Shown: piece by piece, positions 13,132 through 28,928 of the stretch
Layout: the number at the start of each line of letters is the position of its first letter
Numbering within the stretch: the first letter of the stretch is position 1
IMG/VR virus record: IMGVR_UViG_3300042945_001784
Span: 16,808 to 80,807 of that record
Strand: one strand, 5' to 3'
Origin: a virus
DNA length: 64,000 nucleotides
Translations under genes and position numbers: made by a program
The notes under the pieces: model-generated
What the model was told of the DNA's origin: nothing
What the model saw: the letters and a program-made list of their open reading frames with translations, nothing else
The model's database searches: none

Positions 13132-13246
13132 GGCATAATGTTCAGTCTAAACATTCAACATTTAATGTCAAGTAATCATTGTTACTGTGCTTGACACCAC
13201 AGGCTAAGAACCTAGACTGCCACTGGCTTCTCAGCTCTCAGCTACA

Positions 13247-13433: not shown

Positions 13434-14306
13434 ATGACCGTAACTGAAGCGCTACTTTCTGATGCTCAACGTCTTGTGTATGGACGTAGAAGAATTATTG
13501 ATGCTCTTTATCAAGAAGATCCAGATAAATTCAAAGTTCTACAAGCCACTGATATTCAATCTATTTCACTTGAAGATGATCTGGTTTGTTTACAGTTAAC
13601 TGACACCCAACTCTATATAGAGAGGGCAAAAATCCTTAAAAATTTCTGGGAGCACCGCACGCGCACCCCTTCCTACTTTGATTACAAGGTTTGGAGCCAG
13701 GCATTGAGCAGTCGTCCTTGGCAAGGAACACCTGTTGCAGCATTGGATTACGGTCCGTCCCAAGCCATTGATGCGCTGGAGCCTTTGCTGGGACGCCCGC
13801 CCCGGATTCAAACAGACCGTGATGGAGTACAGAAGTTGTACTTTGTCATGGAGAAAGAAGAGATGTGCAGCTGTGAATCATGGAATCAAATGCATGTCCA
13901 CAGGCATGAACTTTCCGATGAGTTCTCTACTTATACCGACATAAAATTTAAGCCCATTTGTAAACATTTACAATGGTGTTCTGCCAACATGATGCTTCAT
14001 GCAATTCGGTTTGAATCCAGGCAGAGCGATAAAGAATACAATCCAAGAATGTGTGTTTACTATTTTGATCATCGTCGCGGTTTGTTACTGTATCGCGTTA
14101 CTTATGACGGCGTAAAAACAGGTGGTCAATGGTTACCCGTTGGTGGTTGGAAAGAAAAAGCTGTCTATGACAGTAACCACATGCCAACCGGAGCTTGCTG
14201 GCAAACCTTTACGGATGCGCTGACCCAAGATCCACCTTTTAAACTTTCACTCTATTCTCATAGCCTGGGTGCATTGATGAACAGCACCCGCGCTAAACAG
14301 TCCTGA
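13434..14306 (+). CDS. SWIM zinc-finger protein
   Basis: CSCES ... PICKHL (CxC-Xn-CxH). Confidence 0.65.
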   Translation: MTVTEALLSDAQRLVYGRRRIIDALYQEDPDKFKVLQATDIQSISLEDDLVCLQLTDTQLYIERAKILKNFWEHRTRTPSYFDYKVWSQALSSRPWQGTPVAALDYGPSQAIDALEPLLGRPPRIQTDRDGVQKLYFVMEKEEMCSCESWNQMHVHRHELSDEFSTYTDIKFKPICKHLQWCSANMMLHAIRFESRQSDKEYNPRMCVYYFDHRRGLLLYRVTYDGVKTGGQWLPVGGWKEKAVYDSNHMPTGACWQTFTDALTQDPPFKLSLYSHSLGALMNSTRAKQS

Positions 14307-14969: not shown

Positions 14970-15317
14970 ATGACTCAAGAACACCCGATTACACCGCCCC
15001 CTGAGCTGGTGGAAAAGTGGCTGGAGAACACTTGCTCGCATGACTGCATCGGAGCTTACCCGGCGAACTACGAGCAGCTCATCTGCACCCAAGCCGCCCG
15101 CTGGGGCGCTGATCAGGAGCTGGAGGCGTGCTGTGAGTGGCTTAAAGCCAAAGAGTGGATTCACCACGAATTCAGCGACGAACTCCGCGCCGCCCGTCGC
15201 CCCAAGCCGCCGAGCTTGAAGGAGCAAGCGCTTGCAGTTTTAGACGACGCCTCAGATCGTCTTGATGCTGCTCACGAAAACATCATCCGCCGCGCACTGG
15301 AGCAACTCGATGGCTGA
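14970..15317 (+). CDS. Paralog family A mini-protein, copy 1
   Basis: HPITPPPEL...QAARWGADQELEACCEWL...RRPKPPSLKEQAL...IIRRALEQL. Confidence 0.75.
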   Translation: MTQEHPITPPPELVEKWLENTCSHDCIGAYPANYEQLICTQAARWGADQELEACCEWLKAKEWIHHEFSDELRAARRPKPPSLKEQALAVLDDASDRLDAAHENIIRRALEQLDG

Positions 15318-15831
15318 TTACACAGCAACGCCCAAGCAATGGGCCGAAATAGCGCATTGGTCTGATGAATACGGCTACGCTCCTCAAACCTGCATCCTTG
15401 AACTCCGCGCCAGGGTCAAGACGCTAGAAGATACGGTTCAAAAGCACATTGTCGAAACGAATTCAAACATTGTGGCTTTATTTAGCCGGGTTGAATCGTT
15501 AGAAGCTGCTGAACGCCAAGCATCAAAAGTCCACCAGATCAGCAAACCTCTGAAACTTACTGCAAAGCAACAGGCAGAGTTAAAGGCATTGCTGACGCCC
15601 GATTTTAGGGTTGGCATGACGCCAACTTCTACTTCAAACCAAGTTGGTAATTCGCTGGTGAATCAGGTAGCCCGTGCCATCGGTCGAGACGATGAACCCA
15701 TCAACTGGGAGGAAGAAGCCCGCGCTGCGATCCGCACGGTGGCCTTGTGGCTTAACGAAACTCCCTTTGATCTCTACCCCGGTGATCGCGGCATCATTGT
15801 CAATGCTCTTTATGACCAAGTAAATCAATGA
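15310..15831 (+). CDS. Modular hypothetical protein
   Basis: MADYTATPKQW...CILELRARV coiled coil plus a 'LVNQVARAI...EARAAIRTVALWL' module. Confidence 0.65.
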   Translation: MADYTATPKQWAEIAHWSDEYGYAPQTCILELRARVKTLEDTVQKHIVETNSNIVALFSRVESLEAAERQASKVHQISKPLKLTAKQQAELKALLTPDFRVGMTPTSTSNQVGNSLVNQVARAIGRDDEPINWEEEARAAIRTVALWLNETPFDLYPGDRGIIVNALYDQVNQ

Positions 15832-16010
15832 CTGACTTCAAATTTGTGCCACTAAACAGCCTTGAGAATCGCCTCGGTGATGCTCTTGGCCTTGCCATTG
15901 CCATGATCCGCGATCCAAGCGCCGTGGACAACAAAGCCATGGCTCAGATCGAGGCGCCATTCAAGGAATGGTGTGATGCTCTCGTTGATGGAGGTCTACT
16001 CAATGACTGA
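15828..16010 (+). CDS. Hypothetical protein
   Basis: Coupled ORF beginning at an ATGACTGA junction. Confidence 0.6.
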   Translation: MTDFKFVPLNSLENRLGDALGLAIAMIRDPSAVDNKAMAQIEAPFKEWCDALVDGGLLND

Positions 16011-16242
16011 CACCACCCCACTGAGCCCCGCCGCGCAGGCAGTGCTGGATGCCCTGCACACAGAAAACTCAACGGGTCCAGAGCGGTATTGGGCTCGTGC
16101 CAATGCCGTTGCCGCCCTGCGTGCTGCTGCGGATCAAGTAGTGCCAAAGTTTTGGCATGAGGACAACGACATTTACGGTGAAACAATGCAAGACGTGCGT
16201 CAAAACCTCCTCGCCATCGCCGCCGAGCTTGAAGCCCAGTAG
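16003..16242 (+). CDS. Hypothetical protein (family B, LSPAAQAVLDA...IAAELEAQ)
   Basis: Coupled start; its TAG stop lies inside a CCCAGTAGTC site. Confidence 0.7.
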   Translation: MTDTTPLSPAAQAVLDALHTENSTGPERYWARANAVAALRAAADQVVPKFWHEDNDIYGETMQDVRQNLLAIAAELEAQ

Positions 16243-16254
16243 TCAACATCACTA

Positions 16255-16428
16255 ATGCTCAAAGACATCACACGCTGTCACGGCACAGGCTGCCCCGCAA
16301 AGCAACATTGCCTCAGACACACTGCACCAATCCCAGACAATGTTCTCCTGTCATGGGCGGCAAACCTCAACTACGAGCGAGCGCACATCTGCGCTTACTA
16401 CATGCCCGCTACGCCCAAGACCCAGTAG
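16255..16428 (+). CDS. Small Cys-rich protein (57 aa), absent from the ORF track
   Basis: MLKDITRCHGTGCPAKQHCLRHTA...ICAYYMPATPKTQ; widespread 'DIT.C.G..CP....C.R' phage pattern. Confidence 0.75.
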   Translation: MLKDITRCHGTGCPAKQHCLRHTAPIPDNVLLSWAANLNYERAHICAYYMPATPKTQ

Positions 16429-16445
16429 TCCGATCAACTAACACC

Positions 16446-17144
16446 ATGACTGACCAATTTGTTAGCGCCAACAAAATGGTGCCGCCACGTGAGATTATTG
16501 AACAATGGGCTAATGAAAAGGATTACGACGAACGCGATTGGCTTTACGAGATCCACATAGCAAACTGTGCTGCTGCGTGGGGTGCTAACCAGCAACTAAT
16601 TGCAGATGCAAAGTGGCTGGATCACAATGCCTTGAATGAACCTCACCTAAGGATCACCCCAGTGGGAGAATCATTGAAGGAAGCGATGCGTCCAAAAAGT
16701 ATAAAGGAGCGGGCATTACACGATCTTCATACTGCTTATAACGCGGATCAAATTGATGACCTTGGGAGAAATTCAATGACTAACCAACAACACCCGATCA
16801 CCCCACCGCCGGAGCTGGTAGAGCAGTGGCGCGATTTGCCCGAGTTCACCGATGGGCGGCGAAAGATGATCATGGTCACTCTTTCAAGAGAAAAACTTCT
16901 AGACATCGCCACTCAAGCCGCCCGCTGGGGCGCTGATCAGGAGCTGGAGGCGTGTTGCCATCTGCTGCGACAGCAGGGGTTTGACGTGGTTGACGACCTT
17001 CGCGCGACCCGCCGCCCAAAACTGCCATCATTGAAGGAGCAGGCCCTGAGCGAGTTGAACCTGACTGCTGATCCCAACGGAGCCGAACTTTCACGAACCC
17101 AGGTTGAACTTATCCGCCGCGCATTAGAGCAACTCAATGACTGA
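16446..17144 (+). CDS. In-frame tandem of two family A units (second ATG at 16776)
   Basis: Divergent unit (AAAWGANQQL...RPKSIKERAL) fused to a canonical unit (MTNQQHPITPPPEL...). Confidence 0.65.
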   Translation: MTDQFVSANKMVPPREIIEQWANEKDYDERDWLYEIHIANCAAAWGANQQLIADAKWLDHNALNEPHLRITPVGESLKEAMRPKSIKERALHDLHTAYNADQIDDLGRNSMTNQQHPITPPPELVEQWRDLPEFTDGRRKMIMVTLSREKLLDIATQAARWGADQELEACCHLLRQQGFDVVDDLRATRRPKLPSLKEQALSELNLTADPNGAELSRTQVELIRRALEQLND

Positions 17145-17478
17145 GAAACACCCGATCACCCCACCGCCGGAGCTGCGTCGACTCTGGGCACAGCAAGCGC
17201 AACGCAAGAATCCACGCGATCCAGTGGCGTGGCAAGAGTACATCGCCGCCCAAGCCGCTCGCTGGGGCGCTGATCAGGAGCTGGAAGCGTGCTGTGAGTG
17301 GCTAGTAGTAGATGACTGGAAAAATGTAAGCGAGAACCTTCGCGCCTTCCGCCGCCCCAAGCCGCCGAGCTTGAAGCCCAGTAGTCCGACCCACTTCTAT
17401 TTAAATTCTGTTATAGTAAACAAGTTCCCGCTCTTTTTGATCGGGCAGATAGAGCCCAAGCCTCTGTCCAGTCCCTGA
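17137..17478 (+). CDS. Family A copy with chimeric, out-of-family 3' end (possible pseudogene)
   Basis: Homology stops after KPPSLK, where the sequence switches to the family B 3' end in a different frame. Confidence 0.6.
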   Translation: MTEKHPITPPPELRRLWAQQAQRKNPRDPVAWQEYIAAQAARWGADQELEACCEWLVVDDWKNVSENLRAFRRPKPPSLKPSSPTHFYLNSVIVNKFPLFLIGQIEPKPLSSP

Positions 17479-17647
17479 GGCTGGTTACGCTTGGGCCATC
17501 AATTAAGGGGACAACCCTGGACTGAGGTTGTCTTAAACGAAGTTCACCCATCAAAGTGTGCTCGCCCTTTATTGGTTACGCGTCAGGCAGACAGCCTGGA
17601 GGGCGGCCACGGTTCTGGAGGCGTCCGATAACGTCTCCCCGTTTTTT
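17422..17647 (+). ncRNA. Structured RNA, manA-motif-like
   Basis: Extended -10 TGTTATAGT (17409-17417); stems GCCCAAGC/GCTTGGGC, GACAACC/GGTTGTC, CGCCCT/AGGGCG, GGAGGCGT/ACGTCTCC then a T tract. The CAGATAGAG...CCTCT...CCATC layout recalls the cyanophage manA motif (from memory, unverified). Confidence 0.55.
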
Positions 17648-17653
17648 CCGCCA

Positions 17654-17824
17654 GTGAACCGTCGTCAACTCTGGCACCTCTGGGCAAAAGCACTCGGAGA
17701 AAAAACAGGACGGACAACCTCAGAAGCTGATCGGGTTGCCCTTATTCGTTCCGTTATTTTCTTAACTTATTTCTTAACCAATTGTTTCATTGTGGCTGGT
17801 GTCATTCGCCACTGGAACAATTGA
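17654..17824 (+). CDS. Conserved cyanophage-type small membrane protein
   Basis: 'WHLWAKALGEK...EAD.VA.IR...TN.FIVAGVIRHW'. Confidence 0.65.
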   Translation: MNRRQLWHLWAKALGEKTGRTTSEADRVALIRSVIFLTYFLTNCFIVAGVIRHWNN

Positions 17825-17914
17825 GTCTTGTGTAAGACTTAACACTTTTTCCCTACTGTCCCTAGTAACCAAGAAGAACATCCGCTAATCTTGGTGCGCC
17901 CTTCCGTACCTTCT

Positions 17915-18241
17915 ATGGCTGGTGAGTTCTACTACAGGGACTACGACACCTACTTCCCTACATTTAGCAATCATTCTAATAAGGTTGCTGAAATGATGTC
18001 TCATCTGAATTATCAGATTACCGAATTCGATTTGGCACCAGTGCCTAGTCAAGAGCTGTTTCGTATGACTTTAGATCTGATGTATTACGTTGATCAAAGT
18101 TACAAAGCAGACCACGGTATTTCTGATCAGTACGAAGTTCTTTCTTTCAGAACCAAAGATGAAATGCTTGATTCAATGCGATCTCTCCTCAAGGAAGAAC
18201 TTGATCGGTACTTGGGATCTAGCGATGCAGCCAACCAATGA
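17915..18241 (+). CDS. Hypothetical protein
   Basis: ORF starting MAGEFYY..., downstream of a GCTAATCT -10-like element. Confidence 0.55.
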   Translation: MAGEFYYRDYDTYFPTFSNHSNKVAEMMSHLNYQITEFDLAPVPSQELFRMTLDLMYYVDQSYKADHGISDQYEVLSFRTKDEMLDSMRSLLKEELDRYLGSSDAANQ

Positions 18242-28485: not shown

Positions 28486-28928
28486 TTATCTCCTGTTCTA
28501 TCGTAGTATGTAGGACTATTAAATTTATTGCTAATATATCTTGGCTCTGATCTCTTAATAGCTTCATTATAAACTTCTCTACTATCCTCGTTTTTATTTT
28601 CTTCTTTCTCTTCGGAAGTTTTAAACATTCCGCTTGTTTTTGCAGCTTGAACCAAACCAGATAAATCGTAGGGCTCTTCAACTTTACCCGGTTGAATAGT
28701 CCTGCCAGCATTTGTTACCATCGGGCTATACGTTGGTGTACGTCCATAAGATGCCATTGTTCGATTAACCATATCTTGATATGTGCTTCTTTCTTGTAAA
28801 GCTCTTTGACCGTAGTACCCAGCTATATCTCCTAGTTTTGTCAAGTATTCAGGAGACGCCCACTCCCGGACTATGACTGGATCTGGATTTTTAATAGTCG
28901 TTGTGGTTGTAGGAGCACGTGAGCCCAT
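28482..28928 (-). CDS. Hypothetical protein
   Basis: 148-aa ORF starting MGSRAPTTTTT. Confidence 0.55.
   Translation of the reverse strand: MGSRAPTTTTTIKNPDPVIVREWASPEYLTKLGDIAGYYGQRALQERSTYQDMVNRTMASYGRTPTYSPMVTNAGRTIQPGKVEEPYDLSGLVQAAKTSGMFKTSEEKEENKNEDSREVYNEAIKRSEPRYISNKFNSPTYYDRTGDN

Follow-up and report, generated by a model that had tools for sequence, protein, structure and literature searches.

Three short sites in a lake-water virus belong, as comparison with related viral sequences shows, to a widespread and conserved family of junction linkers that run from the stop codon of one gene to the start codon of the next. The stretch analyzed here, referred to as the window, is 64,000 nucleotides long and covers bases 16808-80807 of IMG/VR record IMGVR_UViG_3300042945_001784, an 80,807-bp virus record (94% complete) that is found in many lake metagenomes from 2020 to 2025. 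The same short sequences recur between unrelated genes, they follow a fixed order along the genome, and some breaks in homology between related phages fall exactly at their edge. Our preferred reading, to which we give a probability of roughly 55%, is that these are conserved stop/start linkers, poor in G and devoid of a Shine-Dalgarno (SD) sequence, which double as short-homology crossover points in a manner like the promoter-early stem-loop (PeSL) cassettes of T4-type phages.

An earlier note on the window had picked out three sites resembling TAGT-N7-ACTA that bracket a 57-aa gene exactly, and both its coordinates and the bracketing hold. The sites are as follows.

16235..16254, + strand: junction site 1, CCCAG TAGT CAACATC ACTA, with the type A core TAGTCAACATCACTA at 16240-16254; the core recurs in relatives behind other genes
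16421..16440, + strand: junction site 2, CCCAG TAGT CCGATCA ACTA, with the type B core TAGTCCGATCAACTA at 16426-16440
17377..17396, + strand: junction site 3, CCCAG TAGT CCGACCC ACTT, with the core TAGTCCGACCCACTT at 17382-17396, nearest to type G and one base off it

The left arm of site 1 supplies the TAG stop of the upstream gene, gD (...EAQ*), and the ATG of the next gene, gE, begins at 16255 with 0 nt between it and the ACTA. The left arm of site 2 is in turn the TAG of gE (16426), with the next ATG (16446) 5 nt past the right arm. The third site had been taken to close the array. It does lie there, as the final junction before about 250 nt of non-coding DNA with a terminator-like hairpin, but its TAG is out of frame with gH, the open reading frame (ORF) that spans it (17137-17478), and it is not independent of site 1. 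The pattern CCCAGTAGT-N7-ACT has three matches in the window versus 0.00 expected from 100 shuffles, and no match beyond the three sites anywhere else in the 80,807-bp record. At one mismatch, CCCAGTAGT is not enriched (10 found versus 11.9 expected). The bare dyad TAGT-N7-ACTA is likewise not significant in the window, with three matches versus 0.88 expected and 8 of 100 shuffles reaching three; one of these three matches, at 28504, is unrelated to the sites.

Related loci were gathered through homology to gD and through exact type A and type B cores, which makes the sampling biased. In about 160 loci and the genome itself, the motif TAGTC-N5-(C/A)ACT(A/T), with at most one mismatch, was present in 276 unique contexts. 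It ends an open frame of at least 40 codons in 148 of these, compared with 18.7% for all TAG trinucleotides, and an ATG lies 0-18 nt past the motif in 115 of the 148, the commonest gaps being 0 nt (28 cases) and 2 nt (20 cases). These counts bear out the enrichment at stop/start junctions for which a search of viromes had been suggested. The motif is co-oriented with the genes and its spacing is fixed at 15 nt. Upstream of the 148 junctions, CC at -5/-4 and A at -2 are common, and the right arm varies, being ACTT in 34 of the 148, with CCTA and ACCA also seen; TAA variants keep ACTA. The recurring cores were named A (CAACATC), B (CCGATCA), C (CATT(C/A)C(A/C)), D (CACCTTC), E (CCACCTC), F (CGCTTCC) and G (CAGACCC). 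The sample drawn by similarity to the gD protein alone comprised 80 loci with 61 unique gene ends, of which 29 stop with TGA and 32 with TAG or TAA. An ATG lies inside the last bases ahead of the stop in 14 of the 29 TGA-type ends, and 21 of the 32 TAG/TAA ends continue with TC-N5-(C/A)ACT(A/T) at one mismatch or less. Twenty large records, 17 of them at least 90% complete, hold 44 pattern matches versus 18 for a reversed-pattern control, and their canonical cores cluster into arrays. We found no published description of the motif in the literature, with supplementary files lying outside the search.

The same 15-nt tags stand between unrelated genes. An exact search for the type B 15-mer hit 73 IMG/VR stretches, in 53 of which it ends a frame of at least 24 codons. 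Another five belong to the family but are truncated, either by the contig edge or by an earlier stop codon, and roughly 15, in unrelated contigs rich in AT, are probably due to chance. Sorted by eye, the genes on the left of the type B family contexts end in at least 16 kinds of C-terminus and those on the right are of at least 12 kinds, in mixed pairings. At one locus (L123), the right flank of the window, linker included, stands behind another left gene. This was the only match when any core joined to the window's right flank was sought, and the relative that had been looked for, one lacking 16255-16428 and carrying a single hybrid site, did not turn up in that search. For type A, the scan gave 70 unique contexts among the matches listed (80 of 116 stretches). 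About 50 of these 70 listed contexts were judged to be chance, and 17 of the 70 lie behind the tail of a gene of the phrog_32006 family (...ALESLP[DES]*), followed by at least 13 different right genes.

Counted over pairs, 115 unique junctions give 690 that share the same 10-nt core, and in 646 of them neither flank is shared, with sharing defined as 70% ungapped identity. The right flank alone is shared in 27 pairs and the left alone in 17. A shared left flank (17/31) and a shared right flank (27/50) predict core type equally, versus 11% overall, and one right flank was found with several core types. Because the motif is located between unrelated genes in combinatorial pairings, it marks joints of gene replacement.

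Along the genome, the tag types are ordered. The order A, (E), B, G is kept in 11 of the 11 arrays that have at least two of A, E, B and G (the window, G005, G010, G016, G017, G018, G019, G020, L011, L015 and L029), which are not independent lineages. The recurring plan consists of a phrog_32006 gene (...ALESLPD*), junction A, a variable gene, in some cases E, then B, often a gD-like gene, G and the array end. The content from A to B is different in every array: the window has the 57-aa gE there, G017 a gene of 52 aa, G019 one of 128 aa and G020 a gD-like gene, and G010, G016 and G018 each have two genes separated by E. Type G closes the arrays of G018 and G010, and within a given array the cores are heterologous to one another. 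The remaining types are placed less regularly, with D ahead of B in G005, a B-like core before a D-like core in L031, and two D-type cores in L066. The cassette-boundary pattern is thus supported by the same 15-mer between unrelated genes and by an order that stays fixed as the contents differ. The earlier note's claim of integron-like gene-cassette boundaries survives in this respect, as an evolutionary pattern of unrelated flanks, an ordered scaffold and a homology break at 16254, but not as an integron-like mechanism.

Alignments with close relatives place joints both at the motif and away from it. In L015 (92.7% identity from 15287) and L011 (89.8% from 15770), homology to the window ends at 16254, the last base of site 1; the gene past it is a second gD-like one in L015 and one of 84 aa in L011. 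Inside gD, homology breaks at 16147 in L012-L014 (97.3% identity) and at 16134 in L017 (99.7%), and both positions fall at a conserved internal block matched by many loci. In G018, a gene between gC and junction A has been deleted; only the first bases and some 35 nt of the tail are left of it, with the type A junction kept ahead of the next gene. The scar of this deletion (L167 1937-1986) joins the start of the gene (ATGACTGAC...) out of frame to the last ~35 nt, a tail of the phrog_32006 type. In L004 (3001-3426), the closest homologue of gE (91% at the amino-acid level) and a gD-like gene are combined into a single ORF of 141 aa by an in-frame fusion that has lost the junction. Because of the breaks inside gD, the G018 deletion and the L004 fusion, exchange is not confined to the motif. 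The comparison of break positions with the dyad, on which the cassette claim had been staked, is therefore divided, with L015 and L011 at the motif edge and the others within genes or in a 16-nt block upstream. Three conserved gD blocks and this 16-nt shared block also act as joints, which fits recombination at any short conserved sequence. In the assembled contigs of four runs (two DNA, two RNA), the 15 joints listed, of 28, include none between two sites. At loose contig ends, RNA libraries included, co-occurring relatives show the same junction with other flanks.

The 16-nt block is part of a longer repeat that connects sites 1 and 3.

16219..16244, + strand: copy 1 of a 26-nt perfect direct repeat, coding the gD tail, AAELEAQ*
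17361..17386, + strand: copy 2 of this perfect 26-nt repeat, translated as PPSLKPSS in the gH frame; recombination scar

Sites 1 and 3 are not independent copies, because both end this direct repeat. At the second copy, homology to phrog_32006 homologues runs out at 17376 (34 alignments) and homology to gD tails sets in at 17361 (28 alignments), and the 16 nt between these positions are common to both families in different frames (PPSLK versus AAELE). From this overlap of alignment ends it follows that gH is joined out of frame to a gD-type tail together with its junction, and the TAG of site 3 lies outside the gH frame. To judge from the alignments, site 3 is a scar, a by-product of recombination through the 16-nt shared sequence. 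In the loci gathered, the shared block of 15-16 nt has at least 30 unique contexts in phrog_32006 genes and at least 51 in gD tails. Two unrelated families thus keep the same 15-16 nt of DNA (15208-15223, 16219-16234 and 17361-17376 in the window, and many loci), and they read it in separate frames, as PKPPSLKEQ in phrog_32006 and as IAAELE in gD-type tails.

Several properties of the linker bear on translation. Its G content is 9% versus 25-26% in the flanks, and the junction is less paired, with a pairing probability of 0.35-0.46 (+5 to +35) versus 0.49-0.65 over the 60 nt upstream. On crude gene calls, an SD-like word precedes the ATG in 3 of 89 type-II junctions, versus 217 of 497 overlapping junctions and 119 of 507 others. 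A linker that is G-poor, less paired and SD-less within a polycistronic mRNA fits SD-independent re-initiation. The next ATG is in frame with the junction TAG in 62 of 115 cases versus one third expected, with copies that are not independent, and most cores read in the TAG frame give Ser-x-x-Leu. Three other roles were considered and set aside. The outline of the motif presumably resembles that of T7-class promoters, and this reading was rejected with the ATG lying 0 nt past the motif in 28 of 148 junctions. Amber suppression or readthrough was discarded since the only tRNAs are Leu(TAA) and Pro(TGG), neither of them a suppressor. An antisense partner in the genome was dismissed as well, with the longest reverse-complement matches at 9-11 nt, judged to be at chance level.

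A tyrosine-recombinase core site has two inverted binding arms of more than 4 bp around an overlap of 6-8 bp, and an attC site, a long imperfect inverted repeat, forms a hairpin as single-stranded DNA. The dyad had been likened to the former, a claim not supported by the features compared, namely a recombinase gene, the length of the symmetry, covariation, a hairpin, and the position of the breaks, some of which lie elsewhere. The dyad is 4 bp long, its left arm being the stop codon; the symmetry is confined to TAGT/ACTA, and inverted binding arms beyond 4 bp were not found. Positions 4 and 10 form Watson-Crick pairs in 2 of 148 junctions. Beside the dyad, there is no covariation, with 58 Watson-Crick pairs versus 59.4 expected at -1/+15 and 70 versus 68.4 at -2/+16. 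RNAalifold, run with RNA parameters on the 148 junctions, predicted no hairpin at the dyad (mean z-score +0.51). Neither PF00589 nor PF00239 has a match in the 94%-complete record, with the PF00589 control positive in 14 of 14 genomes; this absence of a tyrosine-recombinase gene agrees with the remark that no integrase was visible in the window and holds for the phage genome; a factor encoded by the host, or one not recognised, may yet act. Among the 20 large motif-bearing records, Phage_integrase (PF00589) is above cut-off in four, and in none of the four does it adjoin the listed array positions.

The array does share with integrons its co-oriented small genes, mostly promoterless, each bounded by joint-like sites with variable content between them. 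Unlike in integrons, no IntI-type integrase gene lies beside the array and no site folds into an attC-like hairpin, the conserved unit being 15-20 nt without predicted folding. The junction consensus also differs from the attC core. A 290-aa protein encoded nearby (13434-14306) was considered as a shared partner and was found in 1 of the 20 motif-bearing records (E 1.7e-4). Models of the gD protein (predicted local distance difference test, pLDDT, 76.7) and of a phrog_32006 protein (pLDDT 72.5, predicted template modeling score, pTM, 0.41) have no PDB match at E <= 0.001 and suggest that both are small helical bundles. A tyrosine-recombinase or integron-like mechanism is not supported, and gene swaps by short-homology recombination are more likely than swaps by an integron-like enzyme.

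In the explanation that we prefer, linkers of the form upstream CC, TAG followed by TC, five variable bases, (C/A)ACT(A/T) and an ATG 0-18 nt on would separate the small early genes in hyperplastic arrays of lake cyanophages. On the polycistronic early mRNA, the unstructured SD-less linker would let ribosomes that have stopped at UAG restart at the next AUG. On the DNA, the junctions adjoin about 30-35 nt of conserved coding sequence, either a gene tail (AELEAQ, ALESLPD) or a gene head (MTxxLSPAAQ), so that many junctions, linker and adjoining tail or head together, offer about 45-50 nt of near-identity between phages. Such arms could serve short-homology recombination between co-infecting phages, for which they would be enough in principle, and the phage's SSB, PD-(D/E)XK-type exonuclease and Gp157/Gam-like gene, which lie around the array, may belong to this step. 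Double crossovers at two junction types would swap the gene in between, and the heterologous cores inside one array would limit internal deletion. At site 3, the 16 nt shared by phrog_32006 genes and gD-type tails would have joined gH to a gD-type tail. A dedicated site-specific recombinase is not required.

A number of points weigh against this explanation. Crossovers were never observed, and the same junction in two genomes hides the crossover point. Where both flanks are unrelated, the shared identity shrinks to about 15-20 nt, a short stretch for homologous recombination to act on. No gene of the genome was recognised as coding for a single-strand annealing protein (SSAP), and DUF5895 has no assigned function. 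A generic unstructured linker is no explanation for the exact conservation of the five-base core within a type across very different genomes, and no reader is known for the arms TAGTC and (C/A)ACT(A/T), which the different types have in common. At some array ends (window site 3, G018 and G016) the motif is not followed by a gene, which misfits a pure start signal. Counts of types and contexts are not population frequencies, because the loci were gathered through gD homology and exact A/B cores, and the 20 large records were chosen for holding motif loci. A sequence-specific reader of the core and arms is possible.

Such a reader could act on RNA or on DNA. In the former case, the motif would be purely an expression signal, like the start-associated sequences of Cluster K mycobacteriophages, and would be read on the mRNA by the ribosome, an RNA-binding protein or a nuclease; illegitimate recombination would strike anywhere, and selection would keep the signal, which would thus be a filter and not a substrate. 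The tie in one orientation to a stop and the next ATG (115/148 within 0-18 nt), the SD-less, G-poor and unstructured linker, its place within a presumed operon and the conserved arms, which imply a sequence-specific reader, all agree with this. So do the G018 deletion, with endpoints inside the lost gene and the junction retained, and the breaks in gD at 16134 and 16147, where exchange goes beyond the motif. We nevertheless consider it unlikely: identical 15-mers, variable core included, between unrelated flanks (646/690) point to descent, with convergence fitting worse, discrete and position-specific core types would be superfluous for a generic signal, and the motif persists at array ends without a downstream gene. 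A dedicated site-specific factor acting on DNA, whether a recombinase, nickase or homing-type endonuclease, and whether from the host, from an unrecognised phage gene or from the array families themselves, would turn the core types into heterospecific sites for ordered exchange. We find this distinctly improbable. It accommodates the discrete types, each exact in many unrelated contexts, their fixed order, their heterology within one array, the fixed 15-nt spacing and those homology breaks that fall at the motif edge, and it would allow the site 3 core to be read as a B/G hybrid or a one-base change. The genome, however, has no PF00589 or PF00239 match and PF00589 appears in only 4 of the 20 large records; the arms are asymmetric around a 4-bp dyad that shows no covariation, the 290-aa neighbour is confined to 1 of 20 records, and the modelled gD and phrog_32006 proteins are probably small helical bundles lacking a PDB match (E <= 0.001). 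The same right flank occurring with several core types would be unexpected under strict site-specific exchange, and other breakpoints lie away from the motif. In its boldest form, which we regard as a long shot, the junctions would be an address code, with the 15-nt tags (A, E, B, G and others) read by a dedicated factor (a gD-like or phrog_32006 protein, or a host enzyme) that nicks or exchanges DNA at the tag. If true, lake cyanophages would run an ordered, integrase-free cassette exchange in which heterospecific sites keep the slots apart.

The motif might also have no function and be an inherited 3' tail or intergenic remnant of duplicated gD-like and phrog_32006 genes, spread by descent and duplication. 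The 26 nt common to sites 1 and 3, which would come from one recombination event, the location of type A mostly behind phrog_32006 tails, and the many copies behind gD-type tails can be read in this way. A remnant would hardly have arms conserved across types whose cores differ, at least 16 unrelated kinds of gene end running into type B, a junction kept after gene deletion (G018) or so strong a depletion of G, and we hold this to be very unlikely. Least credible is a stoperator-like role, in which a DNA-binding regulator would use the sites as its operators. Like stoperators, they are short, intergenic and in one orientation with a stop codon inside, but the 80.8 kb hold only three of them, confined to one array, the sites of one genome differ in their core bases, and no repressor candidate turned up, no search having been aimed at repressors. 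The genome also has no integrase, so a temperate lifestyle is not indicated.

Among known systems, the nearest in kind are the PeSLs of T4-type phages. In the published account, exchange of PeSL cassettes is ascribed to recombination between repeats, each PeSL combines a sigma-70 promoter with an SD sequence and a stable stem-loop that acts as terminator, and mini-circles are shown (Arbiol et al. 2010, PMC2839356). Like PeSLs, the junctions are short repeated intergenic elements that extend from the upstream stop codon to the start of the next gene, and they are concentrated in hyperplastic regions of small ORFans, at joints of insertion, deletion and replacement between related phages. Unlike those PeSLs, they are 15-20 nt long, have no promoter and no stem-loop and rarely an SD-like word (3/89), and they come in discrete, ordered core types. 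The start-associated sequences (SAS/ESAS) of Cluster K mycobacteriophages are reported to contain the SD core in one consensus per cluster, and a role in translation is suspected (Pope et al. 2011, PMC3203893). SAS are similar to the junctions in being asymmetric repeats of 13-15 nt with some outer symmetry, a few nt upstream of an ATG, in one orientation and with non-structural genes only, of different families, and SAS sometimes include the upstream stop. They differ in that the junctions are SD-less, always hold a stop codon, TAG, and have a consensus unlike that of Cluster K; the junctions furthermore comprise several discrete cores in fixed order, and over many genomes their flanks are combinatorial. 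Stoperators are repressor sites that occur in many near-identical copies throughout a temperate genome. Those of Cluster A mycobacteriophages are also short asymmetric sites in short intergenic gaps, oriented with transcription, that may hold stops; here, unlike there, we see three sites within 1.2 kb with variable cores, and neither an integrase nor a repressor was found, the latter without an aimed search. Relaxed homologous recombination by Rad52-like recombinases of temperate phages is reported to produce mosaic joints from short or diverged homologies (De Paepe et al. 2014, PMC3945230). A Rad52-like recombinase was not identified in this genome.

Phage mosaicism at gene boundaries is a long-standing question, for which short conserved linkers were proposed decades ago. 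To our knowledge, clear cases of linkers are few, and PeSLs in T4-type phages are the best. The present locus would be a second, simpler and sharper case, with a 15-nt tag, discrete ordered variants and freely swapped small genes, and the tag is seen in dozens of genomes of uncultured lake phages and in metagenomes from 2020-2025. It makes testable the use of tags as crossover points, SD-independent re-initiation in cyanobacteria, and the definition of slots by heterologous tags. If the tags work as portable coupling linkers, they could become useful parts for the design of cyanobacterial operons.

The genes around the sites form a co-oriented run, listed here with the hairpin that follows it.

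14970..15317, + strand: gA, an intact phrog_32006 member that holds the 16 nt of the gD tail in the PKPPSLKEQ frame
15310..15831, + strand: gB, a small gene of unassigned family with overlapping ATG/TGA junctions to its neighbours
15828..16010, + strand: gC, 60 aa, with DNA 97-99% identical to several relatives
16003..16242, + strand: gD, 79 aa, of a three-block family predicted to be helical, ending ...LLAIAAELEAQ*
16255..16428, + strand: gE, the 57-aa Cys-rich gene in the variable slot between junctions A and B
16446..17144, + strand: gF-gG, two phrog_32006-like domains in a single open frame of 232 aa
17137..17478, + strand: gH, a phrog_32006 copy cut at profile position 86 of 116, with a gD-type tail fused out of frame
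17617..17638, + strand: terminator-like hairpin and T run, closing the presumed operon that holds the array

One promoter-like site (13191-13218) and this one terminator frame the run, and no sigma-70-like promoter was found at 16235-16254, 16421-16440 or 17377-17396. Around the run lie genes of replication and recombination, namely a DNA polymerase, a dCMP deaminase, SSB, DUF5895, a Gp157/Gam-like gene, a PD-(D/E)XK-type exonuclease and a primase. Apart from the three sites, the junctions are mostly overlapping ATG/TGA junctions with a repeated 13-nt sequence. This second junction type is present between 15305 and 17144 of the window in six copies of a 13-nt overlapping stop/start (...CAATGACTGA), in which the ATG of the next gene lies inside the last codons of the preceding one. 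In the overlapping junctions of relatives, a GGAGG word is often found in the tail of the upstream gene. In G015 (L172), the gF homologue is a separate gene of 120 aa that ends in TAA, versus the one gF-gG frame of the window.

Among cultured phages, the 65 nt around site 1 matched nothing but short and weakly similar stretches, including a 21-nt identity in S-CBS2, and a tblastn search with gD gave no match. In 185,579 species genomes there were 0 matches to either of two 20-mers, one made of type B followed by ATGAC and the other of CCCAG followed by type B. The DNA matches of the whole record to cultured phages are short ones to Synechococcus phages only, and these weak matches suggest that the host group is cyanobacteria and the virus a cyanophage. 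By eye, gp065 and gp066 of S-CBS2 represent the two array families, with an overlapping junction between them, and they lie near ssb, DprA, RusA and an exonuclease.

No Rfam family matched in the region, including the non-coding stretch that follows the array (17405-17660). This stretch folds better than shuffled sequences, with a minimum free energy (MFE) of -93.1 kcal/mol and a z-score of -3.0. The array itself falls in the most GC-rich 2-kb bin of the window, 16001-18000, at 0.53 versus 0.38-0.49 elsewhere.

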